Below are positions 729 to 27,646 of a stretch of 32,000 nucleotides of DNA, one piece after another. The position numbers and the translations under genes were made by a program. The notes below the pieces were generated by a model. That model was given only the letters and a program-made list of their open reading frames with translations. It was not told the DNA's origin and searched no databases. This DNA is from Methanopyrus kandleri AV19 (GTDB lineage Archaea; JAADCQ01; Methanopyri; Methanopyrales; Methanopyraceae): positions 510,001 to 542,000 of the forward strand of contig NC_003551.1 of assembly GCF_000007185.1 (NCBI RefSeq). Reading direction: 5' to 3'. Numbering within the stretch: position 1 is the first letter of the stretch; the number at the start of each line of letters is the position of its first letter.

Positions 729-855
729 GTGGCGGCGGCCACAGCGGCCGGGGCCACACCCGGGCCACATCTCGAACCCGGAAGTTAAGCCCGGCCGCGT
801 CCCGGGTGGTACTGCGCTCCGAGAGGGCGCGGGAAGCCCGGGATGCCGCCGCCGT
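729..855 (+). rRNA. rrf: 5S ribosomal RNA
   Basis: It contains the conserved archaeal 5S core CCACACCCGGxCxCAUxUCGAACCCGGAAGUUAAGCC and GUACUGCGCUCCGAGAGGGCGCGGGAAGCC. Helix I forms between GGCGGCGGC (731-739) and GCCGCCGCC (845-853). The ends are approximate to within a few nt. Confidence 0.9.
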
Positions 856-2248: not shown

Positions 2249-2322
2249 TGGCCCCGCCGGGATTTGAACCCGGGCTACGGGCTCCGCAGGCCCGCGTCCT
2301 ATCCAGGCTAGACTGCGGGGCC
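2249..2322 (-). tRNA. tRNA-Arg (anticodon GCG); no encoded CCA
   Basis: The reverse complement folds as a cloverleaf. The acceptor stem is GGCCCCG/CGGGGCC, the anticodon stem is CGGGC/GCCCG with loop CUGCGGA, the T arm is CCGGG-UUCAAAU-CCCGG, and the discriminator is A. Confidence 0.9.
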
Positions 2323-4254: not shown

Positions 4255-5541
4255 ATGGGGGGTAGCACGACGAAGTTCGGGTTCTTCACCCTCGTAGGTT
4301 ACACGGCGTTACTCCTGTCCTTAGGAGCGATCGTCGCGAGACTGTCCGAAGACAGGGGCCTCCCGGACATACCGTTCTTGCTCCTCCTCGGATTCTTGCT
4401 GGGCCCCATCGCCGGGATCGTACGTCCCGAGTACGCCCAGAAGGCGTTTCCGTTCGTGGGTACGCTAGGACTCATCATCATACTGCTCGACGGTGGATTC
4501 GAGATCGGTATCGACGTCCTGCGTCGCGTAGCCTCTCTCGTGGCGAAGTTAGACTCGATAACCCTACTGATAACGGCCGGGATATCCTCTCTGATATTCA
4601 ACCTCGTGTTCGGGCTGAAACCCTTCAGCCCGATAGGGTTCCTGTACGGCTCGATAACGTGTGCTACCGATCCGGCGACGTTGATCCCCGTATTCTCGAA
4701 GGTGGAGTTGCCTATCAACATTTCGACAGCTTTAATAGCCGAAAGCGTGTTCAACGATCCGCTAGGAGTCGTGCTGACCAAGATGTCACTGTCAGTGATG
4801 GGATTAAGCAGCCACCAGAATCCGATCCTGTTGTTCATCTCGTTAGCCGCAGGAGGAGCCGCCCTAGGCTTAGCCACCGGCGTGGTCCTCGAGCGATTGC
4901 TCGCCAGAGAGCCGTTCGGAGAGTATGTGGTACCCATAACCTTAGGAGCAGCCCTAGCGCTCTGGTACATATGCGAGGAGCTACTCCCTGGGTTGCTTGG
5001 ATACGAGCTGAGCGGATTCATGGCGGTGGCAGTACTTGGGATGTACCTGGGCAACAACTTGATCAAGCACGACTATCTGAAGGACGATCGGACGTTCCTC
5101 AAGGACTTCTTCGAAGAACTTTCCACAGTAGTCCGTATCATGGTGTTCACCCTCCTCGGAGCCTGCGTCAGCATTTCGCTGCTGAAGACGTTCTGGCTCA
5201 AGGGACTAGTATGCGCACTGAGCAACGTCTTCATCGCGCGGCCTGCAGGAGTCATCATCGGAACATACATACCACCGAAGGAGGACTTGAACCTGAAAGA
5301 GCGGATTTACCTGGCGCTCGAAGGACCGCGAGGGGTAGTACCGGCGGCTCTGGTAGGCACGATTTACTCCAAGATAGTATCTAACCCGCACGCGGTACCG
5401 GTAGCGATCGCCAGCGAGATGCCACCTAAGACCTTAGCCAGCGCCATTCTAGTGACCACGTTCCTCACGATATTCATCAGCGTGGTTCTCGAAGCTACAT
5501 GGGCTCAACCGCTGGCGAAGCGTCTTCTGAAGGAGGAGTAA
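4255..5541 (+). CDS. nhaP: NhaP-type Na+(K+)/H+ antiporter (CPA1 family)
   Basis: It is a polytopic membrane protein with the CPA1 motifs CATDPATLIPVF and ESVFNDPLGVV (ND motif). The start is set at ATG 4255 (MGGSTTKFGFF), 2 nt after the guaA stop. The longer ORF from 4123 overlaps guaA. Confidence 0.85.
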   Translation: MGGSTTKFGFFTLVGYTALLLSLGAIVARLSEDRGLPDIPFLLLLGFLLGPIAGIVRPEYAQKAFPFVGTLGLIIILLDGGFEIGIDVLRRVASLVAKLDSITLLITAGISSLIFNLVFGLKPFSPIGFLYGSITCATDPATLIPVFSKVELPINISTALIAESVFNDPLGVVLTKMSLSVMGLSSHQNPILLFISLAAGGAALGLATGVVLERLLAREPFGEYVVPITLGAALALWYICEELLPGLLGYELSGFMAVAVLGMYLGNNLIKHDYLKDDRTFLKDFFEELSTVVRIMVFTLLGACVSISLLKTFWLKGLVCALSNVFIARPAGVIIGTYIPPKEDLNLKERIYLALEGPRGVVPAALVGTIYSKIVSNPHAVPVAIASEMPPKTLASAILVTTFLTIFISVVLEATWAQPLAKRLLKEE

Positions 5542-5542
5542 C

Positions 5543-5600
5543 CCTCCGTCTGAGGAAAACTCGTCATCGCTCGGCAGGGGAGTGACTCTTCATCGGGGGA
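5543..5600 (-). ncRNA. Candidate C/D box sRNA with variant D boxes
   Basis: On the minus strand the order is CCGAUGA (5596-5590), 12 nt, CUGC (5577-5574), 4 nt, CGAUGA (5569-5564), 11 nt, CAGA (5552-5549). The spacing fits the C / 12 / D' / C' / 12 / D architecture, but both D-type boxes are non-canonical. Confidence 0.3.
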
Positions 5601-6585: not shown

Positions 6586-6602
6586 CCGTCTTCCCCCAGC
6601 GG

Positions 6603-6661
6603 TCACTCCTAAAGGGGCTCATCACCCACAAGTGGTCGGTACTGCGGGACCCGTTCATCCC
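6603..6661 (-). ncRNA. Candidate C/D box-like sRNA between the 16S 3' end and moaC
   Basis: On the minus strand the order is GGGAUGA (6661-6655), 12 nt, GUAC, 13 nt, GUGAUGA, 12 nt, GUGA (6606-6603). The two box C-type motifs are good, the D-type boxes are degenerate, and there is no terminal stem. Confidence 0.25.
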
Positions 6662-6728
6662 ACCTCGCGTATTGTTACGAAATCCATAACAATATGAGGA
6701 AAGGCGGGAAGTCATCGCCCCCGCGCAA

Positions 6729-6761
6729 GCCCGCCCTCCGGGGCTTTCGTTACCCCGCCGC
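6729..6761 (-). other. 3' half of the 16S rRNA processing stem
   Basis: Bases 6729-6744 are perfectly complementary to 8336-8351 (16 bp) and 6753-6761 to 8319-8327 (9 bp). An 8 x 8 nt internal loop separates the two helices. This is the usual position of the archaeal pre-rRNA bulge-helix-bulge processing site. Confidence 0.8.
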
Positions 6762-6776
6762 ATCATCCCCGCCGCT

Positions 6777-8289
<1,513 letters not shown>

Positions 8290-8318
8290 TAAGTGACGGC
8301 CGCAAGGATTTCGGGTCC

Positions 8319-8351
8319 GCGGCGGGGCTCTCACGGCCCCGGAGGGCGGGC
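8319..8351 (-). other. 5' half of the 16S rRNA processing stem
   Basis: It is complementary to 6729-6761, as described for the 3' half. Confidence 0.8.
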
Positions 8352-8450
8352 TTGCGTCGACCCCGGGGCCCCTGGGGTATGTTCCCCCAGGGGGTTGCCC
8401 GGGGTCCCATCGGGGGCTCCTTCCCGCGGCCATCCCCCTCTGGAACGTGG

Positions 8451-8512: not shown

Positions 8513-8920
8513 ATGACGTTCCTAACCGCGGGGACGCGCTTGGTATCGCTCGATTACATCGCGGGCTTCTTCGACGGTGAGGGATCCGTGGTGGTCCGGT
8601 TCGTGAGGGACGGCCGGTACCGGGCGGGGTACAGGGTCTCCACCAAGGTGGTCTTCGTCCAGAAGGAGCGGGATGTCCTGGAGGAGATCCATGAGACCCT
8701 CGGGATGGGACACCTCTATCGCCGTGGGAGCGACGGCGTGTGGTACCTGGAGATCTACCGACGGGAGGATCTGCGCGAGTTCGTGGAACTGATTGGGAAC
8801 CGGACGATGGTGAAGCGGGACGCGCTCGAGCGGTTGGCGACGGTGTTGGAGCTCCTGGAAGGAGGTGTCCACGGGTCACGGGATGGACTGGAACGGATTC
8901 GCGAGGTCTGGGAGGGGTAG
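8513..8920 (+). CDS. Free-standing LAGLIDADG homing endonuclease-like protein (single-motif, 135 aa)
   Basis: It carries the canonical motif LDYIAGFFDGEGSV near the N-terminus, followed by basic beta-strand-like segments (RYRAGYRVSTKVVFVQKERDVLEEI). It starts at ATG and has host-like GC3-rich codon usage. Confidence 0.8.
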   Translation: MTFLTAGTRLVSLDYIAGFFDGEGSVVVRFVRDGRYRAGYRVSTKVVFVQKERDVLEEIHETLGMGHLYRRGSDGVWYLEIYRREDLREFVELIGNRTMVKRDALERLATVLELLEGGVHGSRDGLERIREVWEG

Positions 8921-9209
8921 GTGGGGTCGGTCAAGGGTGGGTAGGTCATCGGGGCGACCTCCCCTTCGCGGGCACTCCTCATCCCGTCGGTTCGATACCC
9001 TGAACGTCGGCGGATTCCGGTCCCCGTAGGGGTGTCTCGCAACGATCCCGGAGGGGTCGAGCGGGCCGCCTCCGGGTACTGTCACAGGCCTCGGTTAATG
9101 TGGGCCACCGCCTGTGTCGACGCCACGCGACGGGCACTCGAAGGACTCAGATGTGACGCCCGGGTTATCGTTGTAGTTTCCATAACGATCGCCGAGAGGG
9201 TCAGGAGCG

Positions 9210-9244
9210 ACCGGTCAGCACCCTCGGGATTCATCACGGCCGGT
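9210..9244 (-). ncRNA. Candidate K-turn stem-loop (L7Ae-binding type) inside a larger structured non-coding region (8921-9349)
   Basis: The minus strand reads ACCGG-CCGU-GAUGA-AUCCCGAGGGUG-CUGA-CCGGU. A 5-bp terminal stem (ACCGG/CCGGU) closes box C-like GUGAUGA opposite box D CUGA, capped by a short hairpin (AUCC/GGGU). Confidence 0.35.
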
Positions 9245-9349
9245 GGCTCCGTTTGGGGCTAATCCCGCCATCATCCCGGACCCTTTCGGAGGAGGGTCGG
9301 GTGGGCGGATTCCGATCATCCCGTGGCGGTCGCTCCCGTGGCCGTGTCC

Positions 9350-10219
9350 TCATCCTTCCATCTCTTCGAGCTCTTCGAGCAACTTTTCGATGTCGTCGCG
9401 CTCCTCCTCCAGCTCCCCCAGCACCTCGGAGTCTTCGGCGACTTCACGGGCCATGGATTCGGGCATGTTGAGGACGTCGTTAAGGTACTCGTCGACGTCG
9501 CGGATCTCGCCGGCCTTCACGTCGAGGACCTTGTCGCAGTGCACGACGACGGTCCCGTCGTCGAGGATGCTCACCGGTGCCCGGTACTTGGGGAGGTGTG
9601 GAGGCAGGGTACGGATAGGGAGGAGACTGTACACCAGGGCGCCACGGAACTCGTGTACTGCGGTCTCCAGCAGGACGTCGGCGACCTCGGCGTTCGGCGA
9701 TCGTAAAGCGGACTCCGGTAGGGCGCATCCGGCGAGGACCGCGAGGTCGTTCCTCACGGCGGCTACCTTCAGGGTGGAGATTACCTGCAGGAACTTCTCG
9801 TGTTCGCCACGGTGCATCGGGTATATCGAGTCGATCACGACGACGTCGGGGTCGTATTCGGGGACGAGTTCTCGGATCCTGTGGGGCTCGAGGTCCTGGA
9901 TGATCTCGCCTACGGTCCGATGGTAGATACCGGCACGGACGCTGAAGGCGTTGAGGACGACCAGATCGCCTTTCTCGTAGGCTTCGCGGGCTCTCCTATC
10001 GTACTCCTCGGAACGTCGTAGGAACTCGTAGGGCGAGGTGCTGGTGGCGAGGAGGAGTACACGGAAACCGTCCTCCAGGACGTTCCAGACCGCGTTGTCG
10101 AGCAGGGGCTGCCGGGCGGACCCGGGAAGACCCGCGAGTACCGTCACACCACGTCTGGGGAGTCCGCCGCCGATCATCTCGTCGAAACCCGGTATGCGAG
10201 TCTCAATACGGTCGGTCAA
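9350..10219 (-). CDS. KaiC/RecA-superfamily protein with a degenerate Walker A motif (probably an inactive ATPase) and an acidic C-terminal tail
   Basis: The N-terminus RIPGFDEMIGGGLPRRGVTVLAGLPGSARQPL aligns to the KaiC/RadA pattern IPGLDxxLGGGxPxGxxxLxxGxPGxGKT, but GK[TS] is replaced by AR-Q. DVVVIDSI is Walker B-like. The C-terminus is EDSEVLGELEEERDDIEKLLEELEEMEG. Confidence 0.75.
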   Translation of the reverse strand: MTDRIETRIPGFDEMIGGGLPRRGVTVLAGLPGSARQPLLDNAVWNVLEDGFRVLLLATSTSPYEFLRRSEEYDRRAREAYEKGDLVVLNAFSVRAGIYHRTVGEIIQDLEPHRIRELVPEYDPDVVVIDSIYPMHRGEHEKFLQVISTLKVAAVRNDLAVLAGCALPESALRSPNAEVADVLLETAVHEFRGALVYSLLPIRTLPPHLPKYRAPVSILDDGTVVVHCDKVLDVKAGEIRDVDEYLNDVLNMPESMAREVAEDSEVLGELEEERDDIEKLLEELEEMEG

Positions 10220-10772: not shown

Positions 10773-10880
10773 CCGGGATCCCCGTGAGGAGCTACTCCGG
10801 AGGTGAGGTTAATCCGATGATCGGACCCCCGGGACCGAGGGGCCGAAGGGATGGGGAGCTAGTCCGGGGGTGAGGGGGTA

Positions 10881-10926
10881 CTCCCGATGATCGTCCTCCA
10901 CGGCCCCCGACCGCCCTCTGAGGGAG
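10881..10926 (+). ncRNA. Candidate short C/D-like RNA or hairpin
   Basis: The sequence reads CUCCC-GAUGA-27 nt-CUGA-GGGAG, with a perfect 5-bp terminal stem flanking the GAUGA and CUGA boxes. There are no C'/D' boxes and no 3-nt bulge, so it is atypical. Confidence 0.3.
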
Positions 10927-10971
10927 CGTTCTAATTATCGTAACGAAAGACAGGTCGAGCCGCACCCGCGA

Positions 10972-11046: not shown

Positions 11047-12033
11047 TTGGTCCGGGTACGGTCCGTCTCCAGGATCCACGTGACACTGATCGACTTACAC
11101 GGTGGGTTGGGCCGAGTAGACGGTAGCGTGGGAGTGACGCTGGAGGGCCCTAGGATCGAGCTCGAGGTGGAACCGACGGGGGAAGGGGTCAAGGTCGACG
11201 GAGAAGGAGAGATCGCGGAGAAAGCGGAGCGGGCGGCGCGGAAGGTACTCGATCTGTACGGGATCGAGGGTGGTGTCCGGATCGAGGTGGTGAGGCGGTA
11301 TCCCGAGCACGTTGGCCTCGGTTCCGGTACGCAGGCGACGTTGTCAGCAGCTGTCGGAACGTTGGAGGCACACGGTGTCGAGCACTACGACGTGCGGGAA
11401 CTGGCGGATGCACTGGGTCGAGGTGGGACATCGGGGATCGGTGTGGCGGCGTTCGAGCGGGGCGGGTTCATAGTAGATGGTGGCCACGTCTTCGGCCCGG
11501 GTGGGAAAGAGGAGTTCAAACCGTCGGCGGCGTCTGGCGAGGTCCCTCCGGCACCGGTGATCTCGCGGCTGGAAGTACCGGAGGATTGGCGGTTCGTGCT
11601 CGCGATCCCAGAGGTGGAACGGGGTGCGCACGGGGATAAGGAAGTGAACATCTTCAAGCGGTACTGCCCGGTACCGGCGCGGGAGGTGGGGGAGATCTGC
11701 AGGTGGATACTGATGGTGATGATGCCCGCGGTGGTGGAAGACGACCCTGAGGATTTCGGCAGGGCGGTGGACGCTATTCAGGACTTAGGGTTCAAGCGTG
11801 TGGAGGTGGGTCTACAGCATCCCGTGGTCAGGGAGATGATGGAGGTGGCCCGGAGTGCCGGAGCTTACGGGGCCGGGTTGAGCTCGTTCGGTCCTACCGT
11901 GTACGCGGTGTGCGATTCGCCCTCGGCGCGTGACGTCGCGCAGGAGCTTGAAATGTATATGAGAGAGGAGGGTATCGGCGGGGAGGTAAGCGTTTCCGAA
12001 CCGCGGAACGAGGGTTTCGAGGTGACGGGGTAG
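11047..12033 (+). CDS. mptG: Beta-ribofuranosylaminobenzene 5'-phosphate (RFAP) synthase, methanopterin biosynthesis (GHMP-kinase fold)
   Basis: The N-terminus SRIHVTLIDLHGGLGRVDGSVGVTLE and the motifs HVGLGSGTQATLS and GRGGTSGIGVAAFERGGFIVDGGH are typical of archaeal RFAP synthases (MJ1427 family). It starts at TTG. Confidence 0.8.
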   Translation: MVRVRSVSRIHVTLIDLHGGLGRVDGSVGVTLEGPRIELEVEPTGEGVKVDGEGEIAEKAERAARKVLDLYGIEGGVRIEVVRRYPEHVGLGSGTQATLSAAVGTLEAHGVEHYDVRELADALGRGGTSGIGVAAFERGGFIVDGGHVFGPGGKEEFKPSAASGEVPPAPVISRLEVPEDWRFVLAIPEVERGAHGDKEVNIFKRYCPVPAREVGEICRWILMVMMPAVVEDDPEDFGRAVDAIQDLGFKRVEVGLQHPVVREMMEVARSAGAYGAGLSSFGPTVYAVCDSPSARDVAQELEMYMREEGIGGEVSVSEPRNEGFEVTG

Positions 12034-12044
12034 GGGGGTCACCT

Positions 12045-13307
12045 TTGGGGGTGTACGTGGCCGAGAACTTCACCGGAGTTTACGCGTTCGATGAGGAGGG
12101 GAACCTGATAGACCACGAGCCGTTCCCGAAGGACCCGGACGAGATAGTGGAACGTCTGCTGAAGCGGGAACGTGGTGAGGTGTTGGAAGAGGAAGAGGCG
12201 CTGCTGTCGAGACTGGACGCGGACGTGATCAACTTCGAGGGTACGAAGGCGGACCGGGAGCGGCTCGAGGAGGTGTTCGACGGAGAGCTGGTCGTCGAGT
12301 TCCCGAACGTGGCTGGGGAGGTCCTTCGAGAGCGAGCACGGGAGCTCGCCGTCGAGGTCGGTGTGGTCGACTCCGAGGAGGAGTACTCGGAGCTCGTGTA
12401 CGAGGTCGGCATGAAGCTGTCGAAGGAGAAGGTCCGGGCGACGGTAGAGGAACGGGATCAGATGATCATTCAGGCTATCAACACTATCGACGATATCGAC
12501 AGGATACTGAACATACTCACCGACCGCGTGCGAGAGTGGTACGGAATACACTTCCCCGAGATCAACAAGATCGTGAAGAAGCACGACGATTTCGTGACGT
12601 TGGTGGCCGAGCTGGGGCACCGGAAGAACTTCACTTATGACAACATCAAGGAGGTGCTGCCCGAGTTCCCCGATCATCTGGCCGAGAAGCTCGAGGAGGC
12701 CGCGAAGGACTCGATGGGTGCGGAGATGGACGAGAAGGACTTGGCGGCGGTGCAGCGGATCGCGGAGGTCGCGCGGGAGCTCTACGAGATCAGGCGGAAG
12801 ACTGCGGACTACATCGACGAGTCGATGGACGACGTGGCGCCGAACGTGAAGGCTCTGGTGGGTCCACTGATCGGTGCGAGGTTGATCGCGCTGGCCGGCG
12901 GCTTGAAGGAGATGGCGAAGTTACCCGCGAGCACGATCCAGCTGTTGGGAGCGGAGAAGGCGCTGTTCAGGCACCTGACCAAGGGTACGAAGCCGCCGAA
13001 GCACGGTGTGATCTTCCAGCACCCGCTCATCCACCGGAGCCCGTGGTGGCAGCGCGGTAAGATCGCGAGGGCGCTGGCCGGTAAGCTGGCCATCGCGGCG
13101 CGTATCGACGCTTACTCCGGTGAGTACCGGGGCGACGAGCTGAGGCGACAGCTGGAGCAGCGGGTGAAAGAGATCAAGGAGAAGTACCCGAAGCCCCCGA
13201 AGCGCAAGCGTGGTGGTCGGCCGCCTCGCGGTCGTCGACCGCGTCGGAGGCGTTCACCCCGGAGATCTCGTAGGGATCGCCGGCGCCGCTCACGTCGAAG
13301 GCGGTGA
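12045..13307 (+). CDS. nop5: Nop5 (Nop56/58 homologue), C/D box sRNP core protein, with an unusual Arg-rich C-terminal tail
   Basis: The N-terminus YVAENFTGVYAFDEEGNLI is Nop5-like. The NOP domain carries AGGLKEMAKLPASTIQLLGAEKALFRHL..KPPKHGVIFQHP. The start is TTG 12045 or GTG 12051. Confidence 0.95.
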   Translation: MGVYVAENFTGVYAFDEEGNLIDHEPFPKDPDEIVERLLKRERGEVLEEEEALLSRLDADVINFEGTKADRERLEEVFDGELVVEFPNVAGEVLRERARELAVEVGVVDSEEEYSELVYEVGMKLSKEKVRATVEERDQMIIQAINTIDDIDRILNILTDRVREWYGIHFPEINKIVKKHDDFVTLVAELGHRKNFTYDNIKEVLPEFPDHLAEKLEEAAKDSMGAEMDEKDLAAVQRIAEVARELYEIRRKTADYIDESMDDVAPNVKALVGPLIGARLIALAGGLKEMAKLPASTIQLLGAEKALFRHLTKGTKPPKHGVIFQHPLIHRSPWWQRGKIARALAGKLAIAARIDAYSGEYRGDELRRQLEQRVKEIKEKYPKPPKRKRGGRPPRGRRPRRRRSPRRSRRDRRRRSRRRR

Positions 13308-13354: not shown

Positions 13355-14053
13355 ATGGTGGAGATCGAGATCGAACCGCATGAGGAGTTTGAGGGTGTGT
13401 ACTGGGCGATCTTCGAGGACGGTCGGAAGAAGCCCGCGACCGAGAACCTCGTGCCCGGACATCAGGTTTACGGTGAGAGGTTGGTAGAGTACGACGGGAA
13501 GGAGTACCGCGTATGGGAGCCACGGAGGAGCAAGCTCGCCGCCATGATCATGAACGGCATGGAGTACTTCCCGTTCGAGGAGGGTTCGAAGGTACTTTAC
13601 CTGGGTGCGGCGGCCGGAACGACACCGTCACACGTGTCGGACATCATCAAGGAGTCGGGCGTGGAGTACTGCGTCGAGTTCGCCTCGAGGATGATGCAGG
13701 AGCTGATCCCGGTGTGTGAGAAGCGCCCGAACATGATACCCATCCTGGGCGACGCTACGAAGCCGCACGGGTACGCTCCGCTCGTCGAGCAAGTAGACGT
13801 AATCTACCAGGACATCGCTCAGCCGAAACAGGCGGAGGTCGTCGCGGACAACGCCGAGGCGTTCCTGCGTCCCGGAGGGTACGTGATCGTCGCTATTAAG
13901 GCGCGCTCTATCGACGTAACTAAGGAGCCGGAAGAGGTCTTCGAGGACGAGGAGCGCAAGCTCGAGGAGCGTGGCTTCGAGGTGCTAGAAGTCATCGATC
14001 TGGAGCCGTACGAGCGTGATCACGTGGGGATCGTCGCGGAGTACCACGGGTAA
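13355..14053 (+). CDS. flpA: Fibrillarin-like rRNA/tRNA 2'-O-methyltransferase
   Basis: Motifs RVWEPRRSKLAA, VLYLGAAAGTTPSHVSDI, VIYQDIAQP and LRPGGYVIVAIKARSID are present. ATG 13355 is preceded by GGGGTGAG. Confidence 0.95.
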   Translation: MVEIEIEPHEEFEGVYWAIFEDGRKKPATENLVPGHQVYGERLVEYDGKEYRVWEPRRSKLAAMIMNGMEYFPFEEGSKVLYLGAAAGTTPSHVSDIIKESGVEYCVEFASRMMQELIPVCEKRPNMIPILGDATKPHGYAPLVEQVDVIYQDIAQPKQAEVVADNAEAFLRPGGYVIVAIKARSIDVTKEPEEVFEDEERKLEERGFEVLEVIDLEPYERDHVGIVAEYHG

Positions 14054-14110
14054 CCGTGATGAGCGTTTCGCTAGCCGACGCGCGGATGACGAGTTACTCC
14101 CGCTCTGAGC
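14054..14110 (+). ncRNA. Candidate C/D box sRNA immediately downstream of flpA
   Basis: Box C is GUGAUGA (14056-14062), followed by a 12-nt spacer and D'-like CCGA (14075-14078). C'-like GGAUGA (14084-14089) is followed by box D CUGA (14105-14108). The total of about 55 nt is typical of archaeal C/D sRNAs. Confidence 0.5.
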
Positions 14111-14117
14111 TCTTCTC

Positions 14118-14170
14118 CCGATGACTGCATTCACCCCTCCTGAATAAGTGATGAAGCGGTCCCCGGAGAG
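14118..14170 (+). ncRNA. Second candidate C/D box sRNA (terminal D box degenerate)
   Basis: The order is CCGAUGA (14118-14124), then canonical CUGA (14140-14143), AUAA, GUGAUGA (14148-14154), which is the D'/C' arrangement. No canonical CUGA follows; GAGA or AGAG sits at the expected distance. Confidence 0.3.
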
Positions 14171-14302
14171 GAGGGCCCGATGACGAGGCAGCCCCAGCCC
14201 GAGGGATGACGACGGAGAGCCGAGCCGAGGGCGAGAGACTTTAACCGCGAACGTCGATTCACGGACGGCGACAGCCGGTAAGGTGAGTGATGGGGTGCGA
14301 GC

Positions 14303-27568: not shown

Positions 27569-27646
27569 CGCCAACCTGTGGATGGGGAACAGGCTGAGCG
27601 CCGAGGCCTCGGGCCCGTGACGAGAGAACCCGGAGCCGACTACATG

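Follow-up and report, generated by a model that had tools for sequence, protein, structure and literature searches.

Between two convergent open reading frames (ORFs) in the genome of the archaeon Methanopyrus kandleri AV19 lies a gap of about 430 nucleotides (nt), positions 8921-9349 of the 32,000-nt stretch that we analyzed (the window; NC_003551.1, positions 510,001 to 542,000 of the forward strand). On one side is a single-domain LAGLIDADG ORF (8513-8920, plus strand; Pfam E=9e-11) and on the other an ORF for a KaiC/RAD55-family ATPase (9350-10219, minus strand; Pfam E=1.4e-15), referred to below as the KaiC-like ORF. Beyond the LAGLIDADG ORF, Rfam identifies an archaeal 16S ribosomal RNA (rRNA) gene (6776-8289, minus strand). 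The gap is richer in G+C than the window (66% versus 61%) and holds no ORF with Pfam support; a sequence-only reading of this DNA had likewise seen no convincing ORF there. That reading had proposed an unannotated structured RNA, taking the form of either a single RNA with multiple kink-turns (K-turns) or several small RNAs (sRNAs), or else the remnant of a mobile element. Our analysis leaves little doubt that the region consists of three C/D box sRNAs already published for M. kandleri, a copy of a published palindrome, and non-conserved spacer.

In archaeal C/D RNAs, the C and D boxes and the internal C′ and D′ boxes fold into K-turns, which are bound by L7Ae, Nop5, and fibrillarin. A guide of ~12 nt upstream of the D or D′ box base-pairs with the target RNA, and the nucleotide that pairs with guide position five, counted upstream from the box, is then 2′-O-methylated by fibrillarin. 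We searched four minus-strand substrings of the region in supplementary Table S1 of Su, Tripp & Randau 2013 (PMC3695527; hereafter Table S1) and found exact matches to sRNAs 38, 39, and 40, all on the minus strand. These sRNAs were defined by RNA sequencing (RNA-seq) in M. kandleri AV19, and each is marked as also circular (PMC3695527). In the order of transcription on the minus strand, they are sRNA 40 (9290-9358, 69 nt; Table S1 genome position 519290, 7500 reads), sRNA 39 (9204-9280, 77 nt; position 519204, 4100 reads), and sRNA 38 (8923-8987, 65 nt; position 518923, 7600 reads). Full-length matching of these sRNAs shows that a window coordinate equals the AV19 genome coordinate minus 510000. 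The option of several sRNAs with minus-strand K-turn motifs was thus the correct one, in the form of three separate C/D sRNAs of 65-77 nt. They are not new, as all three sequences were already listed in Table S1.

Each sRNA carries the expected succession of boxes and guides on the minus strand. In sRNA 40, the C box GAUGAGGA (9354-9347) is followed by a D′ guide (9346-9334), the D′ box GCGA (9333-9330), the C′ box GAUGAUCG (9320-9313), a D guide (9312-9301), and the D box CCGA (9300-9297). sRNA 39 begins with a 5′ stem CCGG (9279-9276) and a C box (9275-9268), continues through the D′ guide pairing (9266-9254) and the D′ box CGGA (9251-9248), and ends with the C′ box GUGAUGA (9237-9231), D guide (9230-9219), D box CUGA (9218-9215), and 3′ stem CCGG (9214-9211). 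For sRNA 38, the elements are the C box GAUGAGGA (8983-8976), D′ guide (8975-8964), D′ box GGGA (8963-8960), C′ box (8950-8943), D guide (8942-8931), and D box CCGA (8930-8927). The C/D box pairs are therefore AUGAGGA+CCGA in sRNAs 38 and 40 and AUGAUGG+CUGA in sRNA 39. Internal D′ and C′ boxes are found in all three; the D guide is exactly 12 nt in each, and sRNA 39 has a long D′ spacer of 16 nt. The near-canonical K-turn hairpin previously described at 9210-9244 (ACCGG...GUGAUGA...CUGA-CCGGU) is indeed present and corresponds to the C′/D half of sRNA 39, in which the C′ box is followed by the 12-nt D guide, the D box, and the 3′ stem.

The GAUGA motif is strongly strand-biased in this region. 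Five copies lie on the minus strand against 1.03 expected (P about 0.001), and the plus strand has none; this P value and those given below come from 1000 dinucleotide-preserving shuffles. Of the features described in the sequence-only reading, this enrichment alone exceeds chance. These five motifs are the C boxes of sRNAs 38 and 39 together with the C′ boxes of all three sRNAs, and the C box of sRNA 40 sits at the edge of the region.

We then compared the locus across Methanopyrus, using KaiC-like protein homologues to reach 12 distinct versions. Their sources were Methanopyrus sp. KOL6 and SNP6, a number of genome bins, and metagenome contigs in which identity of the KaiC-like protein drops to 52%. 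Loci L005-L008, with an identical KaiC-like protein, are 100% identical across the region and so carry no comparative information. A scan of genome contigs with the KaiC-like protein returned distant paralogues and no Methanopyrus locus, and a scan of metagenome contigs with an 18-nt sRNA 39 pattern returned 120 chance matches, none of them homologous. sRNAs 40 and 39 are found in all 12 versions, and sRNA 38 in all but L010. The sRNA segments are conserved above their flanks, with 76-100% identity to AV19 compared with 14-70% for the spacer. The D and D′ boxes change only within CCGA/CUGA and CGGA/UUGA/CUGA at fixed positions (CNGA/YNGA), including CCGA/CUGA variation in the D box of sRNA 38; the C and D boxes are either invariant among lineages or differ only at the N of CNGA. 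The boxes and guides of sRNA 40 are nearly invariant in the 12 sequences, and the guide cores of sRNA 39 are kept, with one internal D′-guide mismatch in KOL6 and SNP6. In the short linker that joins these two sRNAs (9281-9289 and flanks), a CCGAAAGG core is retained by the kandleri-like sequences, by L010, and by the L011 lineage, whereas KOL6 and SNP6 lack it; the linker is longer by ~28 nt in the L011 lineage and by ~10 nt in L138.

To identify candidate targets, we scanned the guides for complementarity to the 16S and 5S rRNAs of the window and to 35 transfer RNAs (tRNAs); the 23S rRNA lies outside the window. The D′ guide of sRNA 39 forms 13/13 Watson-Crick pairs with 16S positions 150-162 (window 8128-8140, minus strand), 10 bp of them inside the 12-nt guide, and its D guide forms 10 Watson-Crick pairs and one G-U pair with 16S positions 118-129 (8161-8172, minus strand). 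Applied to the D′ box CGGA and the D box CUGA, the fifth-position rule points to methylation of G152 (window 8138) and C122 (window 8168), respectively. By its complementarity, sRNA 39 is a predicted double guide for 16S rRNA C122 and G152, and both target sequences are invariant in every relative for which that stretch of 16S was recovered.

Table S1 gives exactly these two positions, but under sRNA 40. The "16S-523" of the sRNA 39 row corresponds to a weak match to a non-guide, non-conserved spacer of sRNA 40. Because the complementarity to 16S-122/152 is found in the sequence that Table S1 names sRNA 39, the targets given for the two sRNAs have probably been swapped. For sRNA 40, the D′ guide ACGGCCACGGGA can form 12 uninterrupted Watson-Crick pairs (window 9334-9345) with tRNA-Leu(UAG) and with tRNA-Leu(GAG) of Table S1, at the site UCCCGUGGCCGU in the junction of anticodon stem and variable arm. 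The 11-nt core of this guide, ACGGCCACGGG, is unchanged in every lineage examined, and we predict tRNA-Leu as its target, with methylation of the G at linear position 46.

The position of the sRNAs also suggests how they may be made. The UGA stop codon of the KaiC-like ORF (9350-9352, minus strand) lies inside the C box of sRNA 40, and sRNA 39 starts 9 nt after sRNA 40. A review puts the share of archaeal C/D genes that overlap the end of a preceding ORF at about 25%, states that nearly half of those overlapping genes have the stop codon within the C box, and adds that most archaeal C/D genes are promoterless and cut from longer transcripts (PMC7994747, citing Tripp et al. 2017). This locus fits the pattern. 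The sRNAs here would probably derive from the 3′ part of the KaiC-like ORF transcript, with subsequent trimming that stops at the K-turns shielded by bound proteins. In front of sRNA 38 we saw no TATA-like element, and this sRNA may therefore depend on read-through.

The only conserved element outside the sRNAs is an AU-rich 23-bp palindrome, ATCGTTATGGAAACTACAACGAT in minus-strand reading, at 9167-9189, 15 nt past the 3′ end of sRNA 39. Its core (9169-9187) has one mismatch to CGTTA(N)9TAACG and the whole element none to the extended pattern ATCGTT-N11-AACGAT. The core is present in 6/7 distinct lineage sequences and degenerate in L010. The shorter pattern has been published as a motif that follows roughly half of the tRNA genes of M. 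kandleri at a distance of ~10 bp; it is apparently specific to M. kandleri and was speculated to be a tRNA 3′-maturation signal (PMC5217627). The copy at 9167-9189 does not have the published tRNA-downstream location, as it follows a C/D sRNA.

We found the extended pattern, allowing up to 2 mismatches, five times in the window against 1.08 expected, a count reached by 1/100 shuffles. All five copies (5/5) lie just downstream of a stable-RNA gene, on the strand of that gene. In addition to the copy after sRNA 39, they are at 863-885, 9 nt from the 3′ end of the 5S rRNA (731-854, plus strand; Rfam); at 2218-2240, 9 nt from the 3′ end of tRNA-Arg (2249-2322, minus strand; Rfam); at 6671-6693, about 10 nt past the end of the 16S leader/trailer stem; and, as a weaker match, at 10925-10947, at the 3′ end of sRNA 42. 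Only ~3-4% of the window falls within 100 nt downstream of stable-RNA 3′ ends, so by our own estimate this placement is very unlikely to arise by chance. The 5S and 16S copies form extended GC-clamped hairpins (fold z of -4.0 and -3.9), and the 16S-downstream copy is conserved in KOL6, SNP6, L013, and L135. In relatives, we located palindromes of the form ATYGTT-N11-AACRAT in L009 (7419-7441), L137 (6433-6455), L013 (7354-7376 and 7513-7535), and L135 (6315-6337 and 6473-6495). Furthermore, the published sequence of H/ACA sRNA 5 ends ...ACAATCGTTACTTCTTC, inside such a palindrome.

The published tRNA-downstream definition of this palindrome appears too narrow. That it also follows rRNA and sRNA genes speaks against a role restricted to tRNAs, such as the proposed signal for a tRNA 3′-maturation enzyme, and the palindrome most likely marks 3′-end formation of stable RNAs, through termination or cleavage. 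More broadly, we tentatively propose, with slightly less than even confidence, that it is a Methanopyrus-wide signal ending or punctuating units of tRNA, 5S, 16S, C/D, and H/ACA RNAs. If so, a hyperthermophile lacking oligo-T after these genes would use a dedicated palindrome for the 3′ ends of its stable RNAs. It might work as a hairpin in the RNA or, at the DNA level, as the site where a dimeric roadblock binds. Two other roles were considered. As a promoter, the palindrome was rejected as a lead, being unlike the promoter-like elements of the 16S, 5S, and tRNA genes (e.g. AAAnTTTAAATATAACC). It is also unlikely to be a LAGLIDADG recognition site, because the same motif follows unrelated RNA genes.

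Straight after the 16S-downstream palindrome, AV19 has a C-box-like sequence, GGGAUGAACGG..., at about 6600-6670 on the minus strand. A C-box-like GGGCGUGAUGA... occupies the same place in L013 (7377-7512) and L135 (6338-6472), with a second palindrome ~160 nt on. These sequences may be additional C/D-like sRNAs absent from Table S1.

Several observations weigh against our assignment of the region. The C′ and D′ boxes are degenerate, the former in sRNA 38 (GAUGACCU) and sRNA 40 (GAUGAUCG). For a terminal stem, sRNA 39 has CCGG/CCGG; only ~2 pairs are possible in sRNAs 38 and 40, for which the circular forms listed in Table S1 could stand in. The Rfam scan that had been proposed as a check gave zero matches in the region at gathering thresholds. 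Rfam archaeal C/D families are lineage-specific, so sub-gathering scores are to be expected; in E-value mode, weak C/D-family matches appear, to sR7 on sRNA 39 (9213-9278, minus strand) and, also sub-threshold, to sR36 and sR15 on sRNA 38 (8925-8986, minus strand). For both guides of sRNA 38 and the D guide of sRNA 40, we found no target among the 16S rRNA, 5S rRNA, and 35 tRNAs; the targets that Table S1 predicts for sRNA 38 are 23S-2742 and 23S-2339. At the palindrome, the fold z of the sRNA 39 copy is not exceptional (-1.0 and -1.6), and covariation, another suggested check, is not significant for the hairpin at 9167-9189 in 7 sequences. Finally, co-transcription with the upstream KaiC-like ORF is argued from position only, and if the palindrome were an efficient terminator, sRNA 38 would be forced to rely on read-through or on a promoter of its own.

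Beyond the sRNAs and the palindrome, we infer that the remaining ~180 nt are fast-evolving spacer. The distance between sRNAs 39 and 38 is 44 nt in the L011 lineage, 102 nt in L134, 166 nt in L138, 171 nt in L013, 226 nt in AV19, 298 nt in KOL6, and 315 nt in SNP6, or longer where no sRNA 38 was found. Its non-conserved part (8988-9166, minus strand) is common only to AV19 and its closest relative, L013. With 179 nt, this stretch is long for a compact genome, and two perfect helices within it (9047-9054/9069-9076 and 9083-9089/9110-9116, 7-8 bp) are unchanged in L013 although their loops differ. Both points would suit one more structured RNA encoded there, for example a regulatory sRNA or an H/ACA-like guide. 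However, we found no signs of function in it: Table S1 (PMC3695527) lists no small RNA there, Rfam has no match in it, and the sequence is absent in the L011 lineage, unalignable in KOL6, SNP6, L010, L134, and L138, and interrupted by indels even in L013. The helices are simple stems with 14-20-nt loops, lacking a pocket, a GA-type K-turn, or an ACA, which led us to reject an H/ACA reading, and none of the six H/ACA RNAs of Table S1 maps to the region. Folding of the 216 nt without sRNAs is no stronger than that of shuffled sequence (minus strand, z=-0.29; plus strand, z=-0.26), and the "dense secondary structure" attributed to the region is a chance product of its 66% G+C. A further RNA in the spacer is accordingly very unlikely.

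A mobile-element origin is, in our judgment, slightly less probable still. Under this explanation, the region would be a remnant brought in with the LAGLIDADG gene, and the 11-nt direct repeat GGCGGATTCCG, whose copies at 9009-9019 and 9304-9314 bracket ~295 nt, would be a target-site duplication. The LAGLIDADG ORF is indeed polymorphic among lineages: some have it intact, KOL6 and SNP6 keep only a remnant, and L134, L138, and L010 lack it. Yet the sRNAs are there with or without this gene, and a self-BLAST of the spacer against the 32-kb window found no second copy. The repeat itself is only marginally beyond chance (longest direct repeat of at least 11 nt, P=0.07). One of its copies (9304-9314) belongs to the conserved D guide of sRNA 40, and the other is removed in L013 by a deletion that also takes ~14 nt on its 5′ side on the minus strand. 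This second copy belongs to a segment (9006-9033, minus strand) that aligns with 9304-9330 over 27 nt at 81% identity (17 nt at 88%). From this likeness, the segment is probably a decayed partial duplicate of the C′-to-D-guide part of sRNA 40 that has lost its C′ box.

The idea of a single long L7Ae-binding RNA with multiple K-turns across all 430 nt drew on the five GAUGA motifs on one strand and on the many possible helices. All the features on which it was built, namely the helices, the hairpin, the 10-nt complementarity, the 11-nt repeat, and the five minus-strand motifs, are present where they had been placed. Against it, RNA-seq (Table S1) resolves three distinct RNAs, each with ends and circular junctions of its own, and the intervening sequence is not conserved, its length going from 44 nt to at least 315 nt. 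The plus-strand helices and the pseudoknot-like pairing are at chance level and not conserved. Against shuffles, none of these stands out: a local perfect helix of at least 8 bp (P=0.29), a longest inverted repeat of at least 10 nt (P=0.18), and the number of 7-mer hairpin seeds (P=0.14). The perfect helix at 9192-9201/9220-9228 is among those listed in the sequence-only reading, and the 10-nt complementarity of 9204-9213 with 9327-9336 joins the 3′ tail of sRNA 39 to the D′-to-C′ spacer of sRNA 40; in relatives, it shrinks to 3-7 nt with no compensating changes. We regard one continuous RNA as extremely improbable.

Equally remote is the notion that the region forms part of the leader of the 16S rRNA, with a role in pre-rRNA processing. 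It does lie upstream of the 16S gene, as had been pointed out, sharing its strand and preceding its 5′ end by 632-1060 nt, but it is beyond a promoter-like element (AAAGTTTAATATATA, 8466-8452, minus strand) that closely matches the element before the 5S gene, beyond the processing stem, which begins at 8427, about 500 nt downstream of the region, and beyond the antisense LAGLIDADG ORF that lies in between. The element upstream of the tRNA is a looser match to AAAGTTTAATATATA. The predicted stem is formed by the 16S leader (8299-8427) and trailer (6704-6775) on the minus strand, is 57 bp long, and includes a 20-nt perfectly complementary stretch (CGCAAGCCCGCCCTCCGGGG with CCCCGGAGGGCGGGCTTGCG). 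Because the promoter-like element and leader stem lie downstream of it, the region is outside the 16S primary transcript.

Other features of the window deserve mention. The 16S gene has no linked 23S gene within the 32 kb. The free-standing LAGLIDADG ORF, which carries an IAGFFDGEGS motif, separates the 16S promoter from the sRNA cluster and is 83% identical in a lineage whose neighbouring KaiC-like protein is only 52% identical. The genes for Nop5 and fibrillarin are ~3 kb from the sRNA cluster, which we take as context and not as evidence of function. C/D guide genes are unusually abundant in the window near these genes: other published small RNAs lie at 10778-10932, 12011-12108, 14051-14237, 27577-27642, and 5532-5598, and comprise C/D sRNAs 41-42, 43-45, 46, and 37, plus a small RNA upstream of Nop5.

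Together, these findings show that the three guide RNAs are already published and represent ordinary biology, and that they are missing here from Rfam-based annotation. C/D clusters of this kind can be spotted from sequence alone through their strand-biased GAUGA motifs. As a by-product, the analysis yielded the probable swap of target rows between sRNAs 39 and 40 in Table S1 and a conserved 12-bp tRNA-Leu match for sRNA 40. The evidence that the palindrome follows stable-RNA genes in general makes general termination or processing, and no longer tRNA 3′ maturation, the place to look for its function.

Compared with sRNAs 38, 39, and 40 of Su et al. 2013 (PMC3695527), the sequences described here are identical and nothing essential differs. 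They share with the sRNAs of that study the organism-typical C box GAUGANGA, the D box CNGA, double guides, a length of 65-77 nt, circular forms, and complementarity to rRNA and tRNA; the tRNA-Leu match of the sRNA 40 D′ guide was found here and is not given in Table S1. With the Rfam families sR36 (RF01124), sR15 (RF01146), and sR7 (RF01310), the likeness consists of weak box-pattern matches on sRNAs 38 and 39. The scores are 13-17 bits, whereas the gathering scores are 37-55 bits, and the guides are unrelated; sRNAs 38 and 39 are therefore not members of these families. In its genomic arrangement, the cluster resembles the ORF-overlapping C/D genes described previously (PMC7994747), with a stop codon in the C box of sRNA 40, sRNA 39 close behind, and no promoter of its own evident, and it departs from them in that co-transcription here is deduced from position. 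Like the palindrome reported downstream of M. kandleri tRNA genes (PMC5217627), the copy at 9167-9189 has a 23-bp palindromic layout with an AT-rich centre and lies 9-15 nt past a stable RNA; unlike it, this copy follows a C/D sRNA, and further copies come after the 5S rRNA, the 16S processing stem, sRNA 42, and H/ACA sRNA 5.

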